Positions 12,652 through 17,752 of a stretch of DNA of 32,000 bases are shown piece after piece. Position 1 is the stretch's first letter. Every line of letters begins with the position of its first letter. The position numbers and the translations under genes are program-made. Below the pieces are notes generated by a model, which ran no database searches, was not told the DNA's origin, and saw only the letters and a list, made by a program, of their open reading frames with translations. Source of the stretch: Promethearchaeia archaeon (lineage in GTDB: Archaea; Asgardarchaeota; Lokiarchaeia; Sigyniarchaeales; SOKP01); NCBI GenBank assembly GCA_046497275.1, contig JAWOFX010000078.1, forward strand, positions 37,696-69,695, in the 5' to 3' direction.

Positions 12652-13326
12652 TTACTTATCTCTTGGAAAATAAGGACACCTTTCCATATGACAATCATTA
12701 TTAAGTTCCCAAACATCACATCTCCCGATTACTTTTGAACGAGTTAAATGATAATCCATATTATTTAAGATTTTTAAAGCTTGATCTATAGCCGTATATG
12801 CACTTAATCTGCAACATCTTGGCCCACCTAATTTTCCAATTCTTTTATTTGCTTCTTGCGCAGCTTCGAATGCAGCTGAACGAGCTTTGTCATGAAATGG
12901 ATTTGCTCGTTTAACCAGACTCACAGCAATCCCAAGACCAGATCCCCCACCACAAGTACCACAGAAACCACATCCCCCCGCCGGTATTTTAAGGCCTCTA
13001 CTAAATGCTTCTTTAATATCTTTGTCTGTAAAATCATATCCATTATTTCTCAAAGCTGTTATAATGACTGCTGGAACTATTCCATGGTGCCATGGACCGT
13101 GGAATGGTAAGGTTTCTGAAGCAGTCCACTCCTCTCGTAATTTATCGATTGTATTCTCAAAAATAAGAAATGCATCTTTATCTTTTTGCTGTAATATTAT
13201 TGGGAGCACTTTTGGCATGAAATTTTGATAATCCTCCATTGTTAGGTTATCAAAATCCAAAACAGTTTCCATAAATTCATCATAATAAGGTATTTCTTTT
13301 GCTTGTTCAAATTGTTTTGTATCCAT
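12652..13326 (-). CDS. DUF5714-like Cys/His-rich metal-binding protein
   Basis: HGPWHHGIVPAV, PAGGCGFCGTCGGG, GGPRCCR, C..WELNNDCHMERCPYF. Confidence 0.8.
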   Translation of the reverse strand: MDTKQFEQAKEIPYYDEFMETVLDFDNLTMEDYQNFMPKVLPIILQQKDKDAFLIFENTIDKLREEWTASETLPFHGPWHHGIVPAVIITALRNNGYDFTDKDIKEAFSRGLKIPAGGCGFCGTCGGGSGLGIAVSLVKRANPFHDKARSAAFEAAQEANKRIGKLGGPRCCRLSAYTAIDQALKILNNMDYHLTRSKVIGRCDVWELNNDCHMERCPYFPRDK

Positions 13327-13437
13327 ATGAATTCACTTATAATATTTTTATATAATTTTAAAAATAATCAAACTAATTTAAATTTTCTTGAAATGGACCG
13401 AAAAATATTAAAATAAAATTTAATTACTTTTCTTATA

Positions 13438-13800
13438 ATGGATGACGATCGCTTCAAAAATTATATTAATGAATTGGAACCTGAAACTACTTGTGAAGCC
13501 TTTTTAAAACAGAATAGAGAGATTTTGAAAAAATTTAAATCAAATAATAAATTTAAAAGAGAATTTAAAGTATATAACGCATTGGGCCATAAATTGCGAT
13601 ATATGATTTTTAAAATTCTTCAGAATAAGCCTATGTGTGTTTGTGCATTAGCACAAGTTTTTGAAAAATCCGATAGTAGCATTGCTTATCATTTGAATAT
13701 ATTACAAGATGCTGCACTCATAATTGGTAGAAAAAAAGGATATTTCACAATTTACTATTCTAAAGAAAAATTATTAACTGAAATAAATGAAATTCTTTAG
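13438..13800 (+). CDS. arsR: ArsR/SmtB family regulator
   Basis: NALGHKLRYMI..L..KPMCVCALA......SSIAYHLNILQDAALI...KKGYFTIY; CVC metalloid site in alpha3. Confidence 0.9.
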   Translation: MDDDRFKNYINELEPETTCEAFLKQNREILKKFKSNNKFKREFKVYNALGHKLRYMIFKILQNKPMCVCALAQVFEKSDSSIAYHLNILQDAALIIGRKKGYFTIYYSKEKLLTEINEIL

Positions 13801-13814
13801 AAATTTAAATTATG

Positions 13815-14246
13815 TTAAAACAAGATTTTCCTTTCTTTTAACCATGATTTGATTTTCTCTTCAATTTCATCTCGAGTTTTTCGAAATTTCTCCAATTTTT
13901 CTGCTTTTGACCCTTCAAATGCCGCAGGATCCTCAATATCCCAAAATAATCTTGTGCTTACTCCAGGAAGGGTAGGACATAATTTTTCTGCTTTTTGACA
14001 TAATGTTATTACTATTCCAAAATGTTTTTCTCCTAAATATTGACTTAAATCTTTGGAATAATGGTTTTTCATATCATAACCTTTTTCTTCCATAACTTCT
14101 TTAGCGAGAGAATGGATTTCTCTGGGTTCAAATCCGGCACTAAACACATTGAAATGATCGGCAGCATATTTATTTAGTATGGCTTCTGCCATCTGGCTTC
14201 TGCAAGAATTTCCGGTACATAATACAACCACATTTTTTGATTTGAT
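13815..14246 (-). CDS. arsC: Arsenate reductase, LMW-PTP/thioredoxin-coupled type
   Basis: CTGNSCRSQMAE, SAG, VITLC...CP, WDIEDPA. The frame is open to ATC at 14246, which has a GAGGT RBS 8 nt upstream; the track starts it at GTG 14231. Confidence 0.93.
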   Translation of the reverse strand: MKSKNVVVLCTGNSCRSQMAEAILNKYAADHFNVFSAGFEPREIHSLAKEVMEEKGYDMKNHYSKDLSQYLGEKHFGIVITLCQKAEKLCPTLPGVSTRLFWDIEDPAAFEGSKAEKLEKFRKTRDEIEEKIKSWLKERKILF

Positions 14247-14263
14247 TTAGATTTACCTCTAAA

Positions 14264-14563
14264 TTATGTATTTGAATTTGAACTTTGATTAATTAAACCT
14301 TTTTCTTCTAAAATTTTAGATAATTGCTTTTTTAATACATATACAGAAGAGATCTTTTTCTCTTCATCAATAATAACACATTTTTGAAATAAATTCATCT
14401 CCGCAGCTTTTTCGGAATGTAATGACATTGTATCATGTTCGATAAATTTAATATATGGAGTAAGCACCTCAAAAACACGGTTCATGAAATTTTCCCATTC
14501 ACACGTACAAACCTGTAATGGAACATAAATATCCACTTTAAGTTTTTCTTTTAGTTTTGACAT
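14264..14563 (-). CDS. Small CxC protein, possibly thioredoxin-like fold or metallochaperone
   Basis: ATG at 14563 with GAGGGA upstream; MSKLKEKLKVDIYVPLQVCTC...; lies between hgcB-like and arsC on the same strand. Confidence 0.6.
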   Translation of the reverse strand: MSKLKEKLKVDIYVPLQVCTCEWENFMNRVFEVLTPYIKFIEHDTMSLHSEKAAEMNLFQKCVIIDEEKKISSVYVLKKQLSKILEEKGLINQSSNSNT

Positions 14564-14589
14564 AAAATCCCTCTTTTGATTAAATTCTA

Positions 14590-14922
14590 TTAACAACAAC
14601 AAGATGTATCATTAGATTTTCCTTTCGAACGTTTTCTAGCATCCCATAGGCATCCACATCCTTGCTGTTCTTGCATTATTATTGCTTGAGTGGGACAATT
14701 TCTTTGACATGCACTACATTCTGTGCATTTTTCTGGGCTCCTAATTGTATATGTACCATCATTTTCTTTTTGTGGAAGACCAAATGGGCAAATTTCTTCG
14801 CATAAACCACATGCAATACATTTTGATGGATCAATAATAATCCTTAAATTTAAAGCCTTCAGAAAACCTTCAATATTACTGCTAGAGTCACAACATTTAT
14901 TATTTTCTTTTAGTTCTGTCAT
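14590..14922 (-). CDS. hgcB: HgcB-like 2[4Fe-4S] ferredoxin with Cys-rich tail
   Basis: CIACGLCEEICP and CTECSACQRNCP, then GCGC and a terminal CCC; begins 31 nt after the hgcA-like stop. Confidence 0.8.
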   Translation of the reverse strand: MTELKENNKCCDSSSNIEGFLKALNLRIIIDPSKCIACGLCEEICPFGLPQKENDGTYTIRSPEKCTECSACQRNCPTQAIIMQEQQGCGCLWDARKRSKGKSNDTSCCC

Positions 14923-14953
14923 TTTTAATAGTTTAAATAATTTTGTTTTCTTT

Positions 14954-16615
14954 TTATATTATTATAACACTCAAAATTGTAGAAATCACACCAACACTAA
15001 GTAGAAGGGAATTTAATTTTTTAAATAATGGATATTCATCACGAATTTCTCTAGGATTAGTAGACATTGTATATCCGCTAAAAGACATTGTAGTGAAGAA
15101 CCCAATCCATAGAAAAAAGAATAAATTCAAAAAAATATACAATAAAGACAATCTAAGGAACCATGTGATTATTCCAAGGAATATTGTATTAATAATTCCG
15201 AAAAATAAACTTTTCACAATAAAATTACGTGTAAATTGAGATAGTGGATAAAGTAATGTTAATATTAGGTTTGGAAAGAGTATCCAAATTAGGAGATCTC
15301 CAACCATCCAAGTTTTATTGATTACATTAATAATATCTAGTGCCAAAAATGATATGAAAAGAGTTAATAGGGGAAAAAAGAAAACTTTTCTCATTAGAAA
15401 TGTAGTATGGGTTATTCCTGCACTTATTCTATGTTGTAAAGTAAATCTTGCTCTTTTCATTTTTTGAGGTTTTTTATTTGGTCGCTTTGTTAGATATTCC
15501 TTTAAATATTTTGACCAAACAGGTCCATATTTTACCTTAAATGGGAATTTTTCAGACATCTCTGGAAGATTAGGTTTTGAAACACCTCCAGCAGAGAGTT
15601 GTGGTAAGATGATAGTTCTATTCTCAGTGAATTGTCGCAAAACAGTTGCTTCAACAGCTTCAACTAATTGCGTATTACCAAAATCATTACCTCTTGCAGC
15701 ACACCATACATTTATCCCATTAGAATCAAGGGATAAAACCCAAGCATCTATATCTTCCAAGTCCCTCATAACTTTTATAAAAGTATAGACATAATTAGCC
15801 GTGGCTATAATAGGAGATTTTGCATCTGGGTCCCCCGATTTATATAATCCTGGTTCAACTGAGATATTATCAACTTGTCCAGTTAATAAACATCTCCAGA
15901 TTTTTAATTGAGAAGAAAAACCCTTTATTTTAGGTTTTTCAGGGCTATAATAACCGGGTTTAGAATTTGGTCTTGAATTTTTTACTAACTCTATTACTCT
16001 AATTGATCCGTGAATCCATTCCTCGTTATCGACAATTTTAAAGCCAATAGGTTCTAAATAATCATAAAAATGTTCTAAAGGTTTAGACTTATCTATATTA
16101 AGCCTTTTCAATTTTTTGCCATAAAACCATCTTTTAACCTTAAAAGGAATTTTCCATATTCCAGAAGGGACAAATTCTGCGGCAATTATTAATCGACCCC
16201 CAGTTTTTAAAGCTTTCCAAGAATTACGAAGGAAGATTTGTTGCTCTAAAGGTCTTAATTCAGATAACATAAAAGTGCTAATTACAAGATCTTGAGATTT
16301 ATCAGGAACATTTAGACTCTTTATTGTACCTATTTGATATATTAATTCTATGTTATCTTTTTCGGGGATGTTTTTCATAGCATAACTAATCATCTGATAA
16401 TTTTTATCAATCGCTATTACTTTACAACCTTTTAAAGCCATTTTTGATGCGAGGGATCCCGTACCACATCCTACTTCCAGAATTGACTGATCTGGTGCAG
16501 TTTTATCTAAAATCCAATTATGAACTTCTAGGTTAATTCCTTGAGTTAGAGATTTAAATTTTGAATCATAACTCTCAGGTTGTTGCTCCAATTTTAACAT
16601 GTAGGTAACAGCCAT
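14954..16615 (-). CDS. hgcA: Class I SAM methyltransferase fused to an HgcA-like corrinoid protein with C-terminal membrane domain
   Basis: aa 1-212 MTase (ILEVGCGTG, IAID, DLVISTFMLSEL, LKTGGRLII). aa about 240-390 CdhD/HgcA corrinoid domain (VEPGLY..GDPD..SP...TANY, GINVWCAARG, IILPQLSAGGV, YGPV). aa 410-553 TM helices with SFSGYTMST...EIRDE. GAGGT RBS upstream. Confidence 0.85.
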   Translation of the reverse strand: MAVTYMLKLEQQPESYDSKFKSLTQGINLEVHNWILDKTAPDQSILEVGCGTGSLASKMALKGCKVIAIDKNYQMISYAMKNIPEKDNIELIYQIGTIKSLNVPDKSQDLVISTFMLSELRPLEQQIFLRNSWKALKTGGRLIIAAEFVPSGIWKIPFKVKRWFYGKKLKRLNIDKSKPLEHFYDYLEPIGFKIVDNEEWIHGSIRVIELVKNSRPNSKPGYYSPEKPKIKGFSSQLKIWRCLLTGQVDNISVEPGLYKSGDPDAKSPIIATANYVYTFIKVMRDLEDIDAWVLSLDSNGINVWCAARGNDFGNTQLVEAVEATVLRQFTENRTIILPQLSAGGVSKPNLPEMSEKFPFKVKYGPVWSKYLKEYLTKRPNKKPQKMKRARFTLQHRISAGITHTTFLMRKVFFFPLLTLFISFLALDIINVINKTWMVGDLLIWILFPNLILTLLYPLSQFTRNFIVKSLFFGIINTIFLGIITWFLRLSLLYIFLNLFFFLWIGFFTTMSFSGYTMSTNPREIRDEYPLFKKLNSLLLSVGVISTILSVIII

Positions 16616-16722
16616 TTTTCATACCTCTTTAAGAATATAAACTAAATCTTTTTTACTTTCCAGAATCCTTTTTTTCCAAGAAATCGTCCTAAATATATAA
16701 TTGAAAGTATAATGGGAATTTC

Positions 16723-16740
16723 TCAAAATAATACTTTTGA
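16723..16740. promoter_or_regulatory. Palindrome TCAAAA-N6-TTTTGA, candidate ArsR operator
   Basis: Perfect 6-bp arms in the divergent hgcA-like/arsR intergenic region; the AT-rich background lowers significance. Confidence 0.3.
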
Positions 16741-16974
16741 TTTGCAGATTCTAAATTTACTTTTAGTTGTCTAAGCTTCATAATAAGTGAATTTTATTTT
16801 AGATTTAAACCTATCGATTTGGACTCATTAACCCCAATCTGAAATATTTTATAATTAATTTTAATTACTATATATGAATAGAGAAAACAAGGATGGTGAA
16901 ACAATATTAATAAAGAGAGAAAAATTGAACTTATGGATACATTAAAAAGTTGTGTAGATTTGAAGGGTGTTAAT

Positions 16975-17310
16975 ATGTCCGAATATTTCAATGAACTAAA
17001 AGAATTCGGAAATTCCCTTACTTACAAAAAGGAATTTCGAGAGATATTAGAGTTTTGTAATACTCTAGGTAATGAAGAGAGATTAAAAATCATTGAGAGC
17101 CTTAATAAACAAGATCATTGCGTATGTGAGTTAGAAGTAATTTTAGGTAAATCCCAATCAACAGTTTCCCATCATTTACGAGAATTGGAAAAGATTGACC
17201 TCATTAGAGGATGGAAAAAAGGGAAATTCACTCATTATGTTATAATACAAGAAAAATTGGATTATTATTTGAATTTAATTTGTCAAAAATATAGAAAAAC
17301 CGATTCTTAA
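16975..17310 (+). CDS. arsR: ArsR/SmtB family regulator (second copy)
   Basis: LGNEERLKII, DHCVCELE..LGKSQSTVSHHLRELEKIDLIRGWKKGKFTHY. ATG 16975 has GGGTG upstream; the track extends it to 16933. Confidence 0.92.
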   Translation: MSEYFNELKEFGNSLTYKKEFREILEFCNTLGNEERLKIIESLNKQDHCVCELEVILGKSQSTVSHHLRELEKIDLIRGWKKGKFTHYVIIQEKLDYYLNLICQKYRKTDS

Positions 17311-17377: not shown

Positions 17378-17752
17378 TTAAAAATTTAATAAATTTAAAA
17401 TTACTAAGCTAACAGAAGTGAAAAGAATTATTCCAAACATCAGAACAAATACCCACTGTTTTTTTTGTCCGTAATATCCTGCTGAATTGATGACTGCATA
17501 AATTACTAATCCCATAGCGAGAATGAAAAATGTAGATGCCCAAGAGAGTCTAATAAGAAGAAGAATTCCACTGAGTAGAGAAAGAATCCCCATAGACATT
17601 TCAGCAGTTATATGAAATCTTATTTCTATACTTTGTGTTTTTAATTCTGGTACCTGATTTGTTAGAAGCAACATTGCCCAAAGCCCTATAATTCCTATCC
17701 CAATGATTATTGCATATATTCCACTAATTATTTGAAGAACGATTTTTCTCAC
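17378..17752 (-). CDS. Four-TM membrane protein, unknown function
   Basis: 124 aa, four hydrophobic helices, FHITAE and INSAGYYGQ motifs, GTG start. Confidence 0.7.
   Translation of the reverse strand: MRKIVLQIISGIYAIIIGIGIIGLWAMLLLTNQVPELKTQSIEIRFHITAEMSMGILSLLSGILLLIRLSWASTFFILAMGLVIYAVINSAGYYGQKKQWVFVLMFGIILFTSVSLVILNLLNF

Follow-up and report, generated by a model that had tools for sequence, protein, structure and literature searches.

The HgcA and HgcB proteins use S-adenosylmethionine (SAM) as methyl donor, the methyl group passing by way of methylcob(III)alamin and then to mercury (PMC11588087). The native role of HgcAB-type enzymes is still under debate, and gene neighbourhoods in bacteria, together with the control by ArsR seen in a single model strain, have prompted the proposal of a link to arsenic. 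Neighbours of hgcAB noted in bacterial methylators include acr3, arsC and arsM (PMC7438021), while in P. mercurii hgcAB was found to be controlled by ArsR and induced by arsenic, and an hgcAB deletion mutant was less tolerant of As(V) (bioRxiv 10.1101/2022.10.17.512643). As(III) is also methylated non-enzymatically by methylcobalamin (reviewed in PMC6950371). The association of hgcAB with ars genes is already published for the canonical bacterial genes. Here we analysed a stretch of 32,000 nucleotides (nt), referred to as the window, from the Asgard genome of a Promethearchaeia archaeon (assembly GCA_046497275.1, contig JAWOFX010000078.1, positions 37,696 to 69,695 of the forward strand). An arsenic (ars) gene cluster within it encodes a SAM-methyltransferase joined to an HgcA-like corrinoid/membrane protein which keeps the cysteine ligand of cobalt. 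The locus is a locally rearranged version of an ars operon that recurs throughout this Asgard order, which is Lokiarchaeial to judge by the source names of its close homologues, and at its core stands a putative three-part methyl-transfer machine.

The cluster was mapped using a list of open reading frames and two profile libraries, and coordinates of all features are given in Table 1. Four genes follow one after another on the minus strand, namely the fusion, an HgcB-like ferredoxin, a small protein with a Cys-x-Cys motif (CxC protein) and arsC, separated by gaps of 31 nt, 26 nt (counted from the ATG of the CxC gene) and 32 nt, respectively. The fusion diverges from arsR2 across a spacer of 317 nt. 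At the opposite end arsR1 converges on arsC with a gap of 14 nt, and diverges from a DUF5714 gene across a spacer of 111 nt. An earlier sequence-only reading of this DNA had drawn the same map, and all of its genes were recovered in place and orientation. It had also stated that the cluster holds no visible efflux pump. Profile searches of window positions 9.8-19.6 kb likewise returned no intact gene for Acr3, ArsB, ArsP, ArsA or ArsM, but the reading had missed a relic of acr3, the last 28 codons of the gene, within the 317-nt spacer.

Residues 1-212 of the fusion form a class I SAM-methyltransferase for which the nearest named family was CpaM, the corrinoid protein-associated methyltransferase (NF043040, 140.1 bits over positions 3-213 of 216, under the 180-bit cut-off), the fusion joining this domain to the HgcA-like part. 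The glycines of methyltransferase motif I (G49, G51 and G53) were invariant in 41 full-length Asgard fusions. Residues 239-549 aligned end to end with HgcA (NF040863, 169.9 bits over model positions 16-322 of 325, cut-off 275), and the HgcA-like part fitted the family of HgcAB-like fusions equally (NF043039, 168.6 bits, under 285), the ferredoxin being in this case a separate gene 31 nt downstream. As is expected of an HgcA, a corrinoid domain of the type found in the corrinoid iron-sulfur protein (CFeSP) was followed by a multi-helix membrane domain, as seen with PF03599 and in the structural model. Among the 41 fusions Cys305 of the cap helix was invariant and the arginine of NVWCAARG was at least 80% conserved. 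The canonical HgcA cap helix read NVWCAAGK in 93 of 150 representatives, and the NVWCAARG of the fusion does not fit the HgcA motif N(V/I)WCA(A/G)GK despite the retained cobalt-ligand cysteine. An AlphaFold2 (AF2) model based on the 41-sequence alignment, with a mean predicted local distance difference test score (pLDDT) of 89 and a predicted template modelling score (pTM) of 0.85, consisted of a Rossmann domain, a corrinoid domain with a short cap helix and long C-terminal membrane helices (residues 393-552). The top structural match of this model in the PDB was the deposited HgcAB model 9a0b_A (E 4.9e-14), the other matches being ordinary methyltransferases, and sequence search with the fusion retrieved no solved HgcA chain. 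The methyltransferase domain scored 37.9 bits against ArsM (NF008823, cut-off 263 bits) and showed weak similarity to TehB. A literature search found no papers mentioning CpaM together with corrinoid, and none mentioning DUF5714.

To place the HgcA-like part within its family, it was searched against 1.8 billion representatives, matches were labelled by architecture and cap motif, and a tree was built. In this tree, made by quick search and rooted at the midpoint, a branch with 100% support in the SH-aLRT (Shimodaira-Hasegawa-like approximate likelihood ratio test) divided 87 rows from 33 rows. The larger side consisted nearly entirely of stand-alone proteins with NVWCAAGK and represents canonical HgcA. 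The smaller side held all methyltransferase-fused proteins together with four of the five matches that carry a C-terminal ferredoxin part, and the GK of the canonical motif occurred in none of them. The window fusion grouped with this non-canonical side and not with canonical HgcA. This agrees with the tree of Lin et al. (PMC10083202), where Asgard sequences fell within the fused-HgcAB subtree. Fused HgcAB-like genes were found to have a separate methyltransferase gene, encoding 212-219 amino acids, immediately upstream. As the methyltransferase is fused in Asgard archaea and adjoining elsewhere, the SAM methyltransferase, the HgcA-like part and the HgcB-like part form a constant trio in varied states of fusion. 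One metagenomic protein of 539 amino acids (P0215), from a short contig, combines an HgcA-like part with a ferredoxin part at its C terminus and about 190 extra residues at its N terminus, a layout in which all three members of the trio may be fused. The sequence-only reading had allowed for mercury methylation as a side activity of the module. This is left without support by the position of the fusion in the non-canonical clade, the sole tested member of which, fused HgcAB from P. furiosus, did not form methylmercury (PMC4646819).

The fusion was present at full length in about 150 Asgard genomes; when weak partial matches are counted, 192 of 400 genomes gave a match at E <= 1e-20. Forty loci around the fusion were taken from relatives for comparison. 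In seven genera the same order recurred, with arsR divergent from a run of (DUF166), acr3, fusion, hgcB, CxC, c6 (a small protein without family match) and arsC, in which acr3 ended about 24 nt before the fusion. This packing from acr3 to arsC in one orientation was tight (24-32 nt) and was kept across 46-75% protein identity in several genera. Three relatives assembled as a single contig, G138, G143 and G189, encode the fusion and hgcB, and two of them, G138 (L042) and G143 (L036), display the run arsR-acr3-fusion-hgcB. In 12 of the 21 genera sampled, at least one ars gene was no more than 6 kb away from the fusion. The chromosome of the window is syntenic with that of relatives, with an AAA-like gene on one side and YdjM on the other, so that the ars block is an old resident of this position. 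The claim that a corrinoid module sits within an arsenic gene set is thereby upheld, as in relatives acr3 lies upstream in the same orientation, CxC and arsC lie downstream and a CVC-type arsR diverges. Comparison of synteny in other Asgard genomes, which the sequence-only reading had proposed, revealed this conserved ars layout and, in two genomes (G145 and G170), an arsM gene in the same operon as the fusion (true ArsM, 363 bits). The description of the pathway as distinct from ArsM, if taken to mean a replacement of it, is not supported, since ArsM and the fusion co-occur in many genomes, even in one operon.

A complementary distribution of ArsM and the fusion was considered and rejected. 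In the window genus the fusion was present in 6 of 6 genomes and ArsM in none of the 6, whereas the tendency is reversed in genera g2 and g11. Both genes were found in many genomes of g12, g13 and other classes, sometimes in one operon. Many of the Asgard ArsM matches were flagged with one in-frame TAA or TAG (for example G119:C140:8340-9149 and G146:C317:22938-23738), which may reflect recoding, a broken gene or an effect at the edge of the alignment. In the ancestral layout a DUF166 gene with a weak DfsP-like match stands between arsR and acr3, and a Cys-rich DUF2769 gene adjoins arsR (L018:5143-5895 and L018:4142-4402 cover DUF166/DUF2769); both are missing from the window cluster and present elsewhere in the same genome (contigs C109 and C105). 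Fusion loci of genus g12 which lack acr3 (L029, L030 and L032) carry an FMN reductase, two flavin reductases, an EamA transporter and a MarR or ArsR regulator, and represent a different but recurrent context. In G177 (L032) the FMN reductase gene lies upstream of the fusion, and it has a same-cluster homologue in G191 (L030). Against NCBIfam this reductase gave only weak matches, to models of NAD(P)H:quinone oxidoreductase and of SsuE-type FMN reductase, and none to an ArsH model. At one further locus (L105:6869-7963) a gene of the URO-D family stands beside a very divergent methyltransferase::HgcA-like/HgcB pair, with thioredoxin and TetR genes near. The URO-D family includes methylcobamide methyltransferases.

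The acr3 relic in the window was 68% identical to residues 326-353 of Acr3 from the same-genus genome G274 (tblastn, E 2.8e-8) and 60% identical to the Acr3 encoded elsewhere in its own genome. A stop codon and unrelated sequence come before it, and 32 nt separate its end from the ATG of the fusion. When window DNA was aligned with the acr3-fusion junction of G274, homology spanned the relic, the acr3 stop codon and a GAGAGGT motif up to the ATG. The genome search for acr3 proposed in the sequence-only reading turned up an intact gene on contig C118 (287.7 bits against the TIGR00832 cut-off of 282.8), with its own arsR after it and another arsR, a CxC paralogue and a DGC-domain gene before it. 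In the same genus, acr3 lies directly upstream of the fusion in G273, G274 and G275 and at the downstream end of the same operon in G278, and is thus carried in the operon at all four mapped loci. With a relic in the spacer and acr3 in the operons of relatives, the lack of a pump is secondary and confined to this genome; the alignments indicate that it is an ordinary, recent local deletion. The argument that had been built upon a missing pump fails on the relic, the intact gene on C118 and the four same-genus operons. No ArsM above the cut-off was found in this genome, which is 98.9% complete, or in the 6 other genomes of the genus that were searched. The c6 protein, of 80-120 amino acids, travels with acr3 and CxC in the ars islands of several genera and stands divergent beside acr3 on C118; most copies end in ..QPDVGC (L015:8131-8496 on C118, L016:5407-5757, L019:9308-9673).

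The gene products that follow the fusion were analyzed in the same manner. The ferredoxin contains two CX2CX2CX3CP motifs, then GCGCLW, and a C-terminal CCC. Its score against HgcB (NF040864) was 52 bits, compared with a cut-off of 99 bits, with both cluster motifs and the terminal CCC present. An hgcB-like gene was located directly downstream of the fusion in the window and in 36 of the 40 loci of relatives, where nearly all of the ferredoxins had the GCGC motif and almost all ended in a Cys-Cys tail. The CxC protein had no match in Pfam or NCBIfam, and a profile search of the PDB at E up to 10 was likewise empty. Its AF2 model (pLDDT 89) matched thioredoxin (Z 9.6, root-mean-square deviation 2.2 Å over 78 residues) with the Cys-x-Cys at the position of the thioredoxin CxxC active site, and both cysteines, C19 and C21, were invariant in 13 sequences. 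The paralogue on C118 is 53% identical and adjoins arsR and the DGC-domain gene. Other CxC genes were found beside arsR, acr3 or a DGC-domain gene without the fusion, which makes CxC an ars-island protein in its own right. The protein could act either as a thiol chaperone for As(III) or as a reductant for ArsC. Some CxC proteins (L024:6099-6545, L025:9133-9588 and L028:9049-9435) bear an N-terminal Cys-rich extension, CCG..SCCGS..SCC, and some HgcB-like tails are extended similarly; the composition of these extensions suggests extra thiol sites for a thiophilic ligand. The ArsC translation contains CTGNSCRS and a later C-x6-C pair, and scored 124.8 bits against TIGR02691, below the cut-off of 174.3 bits.

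Both regulators passed the 55-bit cut-off of NF033788 (ArsR1, 57.8 bits; ArsR2, 68.8 bits) and both contain CVC; by winged-helix score and CVC pair they are predicted to be As(III)-responsive members of the ArsR/SmtB type. The CVC was kept in 23 of 23 fusion-adjacent ArsRs of relatives, and was retained also in co-oriented ArsRs of a distant class (f31) whose fusions are only about 30% identical. Within the arsR2-fusion spacer, the block TAGATTTAAACCTA is conserved as AGATTTAAATCT in the spacer of same-genus G278 (L103, about 1970-1990), and this palindromic block could be an ArsR operator or a TATA box. The DUF5714 protein is partly similar to the metal-binding selenoprotein MbdU. The divergent pair of ArsR1 and DUF5714 of the window type was kept in 13 of 14 loci from other genomes, three of them (G168, G276 and G163) in other ars islands, whereas relatives have no such pair at this position. 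ArsR1 and DUF5714 make up a two-gene module of their own that was inserted here, with DUF5714 as the likely target of ArsR1. Adjoining arsR2 on the minus strand (17378-17752) is a gene for a predicted membrane protein of 124 amino acids without family match, where relatives carry DUF2769; it was not conserved in the 40 loci. The cluster is flanked by genes for a YdjM-like membrane protein, an M28 peptidase and a 421-residue protein without assignment.

Table 1. Features of the ars cluster, in window coordinates.
Feature	Position	Strand	Basis
ArsR2, ArsR/SmtB metalloregulator with CVC site (..DHCVCELEVIL..)	16933..17310	+	HTH_5 55.4 bits; NF033788 68.8 bits
Palindrome TAGATTTAAACCTA in arsR2-fusion spacer, candidate operator or TATA element	16800..16813	.	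Inverted repeat; function inferred
acr3 3'-end relic, last 28 codons	16648..16731	-	tblastn and DNA alignment with G274
Methyltransferase::HgcA-like fusion, 553 amino acids	14954-16615	-	Profile matches
N-terminal class I SAM-methyltransferase domain, CpaM type, fusion residues 1-212	15980..16615	-	Methyltransf_11 57.5 bits; NF043040 140.1 bits
HgcA-like part, fusion residues 233-553	14957..15919	-	PF03599 54.4 bits; NF040863 169.9 bits
Cap-helix motif NVWCAARG, residues 302-309, Cys305 presumed cobalt ligand	15689..15712	-	Alignment of 41 fusions
HgcB-like 2x[4Fe-4S] ferredoxin	14590..14922	-	Fer4 families; NF040864 52 bits
CxC protein, thioredoxin fold, 99-112 amino acids	14264..14563 (or to 14602)	-	Predicted structure; no family match
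ArsC, low-molecular-weight phosphatase/thioredoxin-coupled type	13815..14231	-	LMWPc 82.4 bits; TIGR02691 124.8 bits
ArsR1, second CVC-type ArsR	13438..13800	+	NF033788 57.8 bits
DUF5714, Cys-rich protein	12652..13326	-	PF18978 145.7 bits

With respect to function, the reading that we favour is a relay under ArsR control, operating beside Acr3, in which a methyl group is handed from SAM to the corrinoid and on to arsenic or antimony. On the gene content this is plausible, and we put it forward tentatively, as something short of probable. In such a relay As(III) or Sb(III), the former produced by ArsC, would free the shared promoter from ArsR2. The methyltransferase domain would take the methyl group of SAM and load it onto Co(I) in the HgcA-like domain, the ferredoxin would re-reduce the cobalt, and the thiols of its GCGC motif and terminal CCC would present the thiophilic substrate. 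Methyl transfer to As(III) or Sb(III) would take place at the membrane, and products or leftover As(III) would exit by diffusion or via Acr3, so that methylation would proceed alongside efflux and not in its place. A further-reaching form of the proposal, about which we are doubtful, holds that the fusion and its HgcB-like partner constitute a dedicated corrinoid-dependent arsenite/antimonite methyltransferase working in series with Acr3 and ArsC. This would be the first gene-encoded B12-dependent route of arsenic methylation, widespread in this Asgard lineage, and the handling of metalloids rather than mercury would be a native role of this branch of the HgcAB superfamily.

A number of observations weigh against an arsenic-methylating relay. 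The methyltransferase domain has no conserved arsenic-binding cysteines, its sole conserved cysteine being in motif I. No match to CobS (PF02654) was obtained in the 98.9%-complete genome, so the corrinoid would have to be imported, and the organism may depend on imported corrinoids; the genome itself codes for the HgcA-like fusion and, on contig C136, for a CdhE-like protein, both of them corrinoid proteins. The methylarsenite (MAs(III)) pump ArsP was not found in the genome. As arsM shares an operon with the fusion in some relatives, a plain duplicate of the ArsM task is disfavoured. In G276 the fusion stands outside the ars island, in which acr3, CxC and c6 have remained together, and no ars genes were found beside the distant fusions and fused HgcAB-like genes examined, the neighbours of which include peroxiredoxin, POR, DHDPS/Fae, MFS, EamA and flavin reductases. 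These distant members and the separation in G276 make the arsenic link lineage-specific and losable. It is strong in this order and not universal to the clade.

The same observations lend something to two other explanations, each of which we consider unlikely. The module may belong to the ArsR regulon with a methyl acceptor other than arsenic, such as mercury, antimony, bismuth, tellurium or selenium, or a thiol or small molecule that aids the cell under metalloid stress. Regulators of the ArsR/SmtB type with a CVC site sense other thiophilic metals too, the methyltransferase domain is weakly TehB-like, distant members of the clade are not ars-linked, and an arsM already present in the operon of some relatives suggests a non-redundant task for the fusion. 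Against a non-arsenic acceptor, the companion genes acr3, arsC and arsM are specific for arsenic and antimony, and mer or other metal genes were seen in none of the 40 loci. It is similarly improbable that nothing more than shared regulation or genomic drift lies behind the ars linkage, with the HgcAB-like machine serving a housekeeping or other role, for example a reductive corrinoid-dependent reaction such as dehalogenation, or another methyl transfer. Such an explanation would account for the three-part core module being widespread without ars neighbours and for the fusion standing apart from the ars island in G276, and halomethane dehalogenation by mercury methylators is reported in a 2026 preprint (10.64898/2026.04.26.720869). 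It sits poorly with the tight acr3-arsC packing (24-32 nt) kept over 46-75% identity in several genera, and with an ArsR that is adjacent even in a distant class.

Two further explanations fare worse. One is that the module runs in the direction of demethylation, an anaerobic equivalent of ArsI in which the corrinoid takes up the methyl group and methylarsenite made by neighbours is detoxified. Corrinoid proteins are able to accept methyl groups, and anaerobic demethylation of methylarsenicals, for which no enzyme is known, is reported from methanogen-rich soils (PMC6776024). However, the conserved SAM-methyltransferase domain with its intact motif I points to donation from SAM, and SAM-dependent methylation of HgcA was reported to be irreversible (PMC11588087), which leaves demethylation very unlikely. 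The other is the proposal of the sequence-only reading, in which corrinoid-dependent methylation stands in for a missing arsenite pump. Although no intact pump gene was found in the cluster and ArsM exceeded its cut-off in neither this genome nor the 6 others of the genus, the acr3 relic in the spacer, the intact acr3 with its arsR on C118, and acr3 within the operon at four same-genus loci and in six other genera make it extremely unlikely; the genome's own acr3 has already largely refuted it.

With regard to the native function of HgcAB-type enzymes, the Asgard operon offers a cleaner test of the arsenic link, as a non-canonical HgcA relative with its own SAM-loading domain lies between pump and reductase in several genera. 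In a literature search we found no description of an Asgard CpaM-type domain fused to a non-canonical HgcA, nor of the fixed placement of the fusion between acr3 and arsC or of its CxC and c6 companions. Were arsenic or antimony to be methylated by this module, there would be a second, B12-dependent enzymatic route in the arsenic cycle of anoxic sediments, and the reading of hgcA-like genes in metagenomes would change. Sequences of this kind, which do not have NVWCAAGK, may be missed by strict motif screens and mislabelled as mercury methylators by looser ones.

In comparison with HgcA and HgcB of P. mercurii ND132, the Asgard proteins share a corrinoid domain with a cap-helix cysteine, a membrane domain at the C terminus and, next to it in the genome, a ferredoxin with two clusters that ends in cysteines, as well as linkage to an ArsR-type regulator; SAM, the methyl source of HgcAB (PMC11588087), would be a further point of likeness. 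They differ in scoring far under the equivalog cut-offs (170 versus 275 and 52 versus 99 bits), in the NVWCAARG cap, in lying on the far side of a split with 100% support, and in a fused SAM-methyltransferase domain of 210 amino acids that is missing in canonical HgcA. Likeness is also found with the fused HgcAB-like protein and CpaM of the P. furiosus type (NF043039, NF043040), which belong to the same clade, have a non-GK cap helix and keep a constant CpaM-like partner. In the P. furiosus type, however, HgcA and HgcB form one polypeptide beside a stand-alone methyltransferase, whereas the window encodes a methyltransferase joined to HgcA and a stand-alone HgcB, and the example loci examined of that type, unlike the window operon, were without ars genes. 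With ArsM the fusion has in common a class I SAM methyltransferase within ars operons, and the reaction proposed for it is that of ArsM; it is unlike ArsM in its score (38 bits against a cut-off of 263) and in having no conserved arsenic-binding cysteines, and a true ArsM stands beside the fusion in G145 and G170. The CxC protein resembles ArsD and ArsE in its small thioredoxin fold with paired cysteines at the start of helix 1, and is found beside arsR, acr3 and a DGC-domain gene, as is ArsE in ND132 (bioRxiv 10.1101/2022.10.17.512643). It differs in its motif, which is CxC and not CC...C or CxxC, and has no sequence match to PF13192, ArsD or a solved chain. The arrangement as a whole is like the arsR-acr3-arsC operons of archaea and bacteria in its divergent CVC ArsR, its Acr3 (in relatives) and its thioredoxin-type ArsC, and is set apart from them by the corrinoid module, the CxC thioredoxin-fold protein, DUF166 and c6 placed between pump and reductase.

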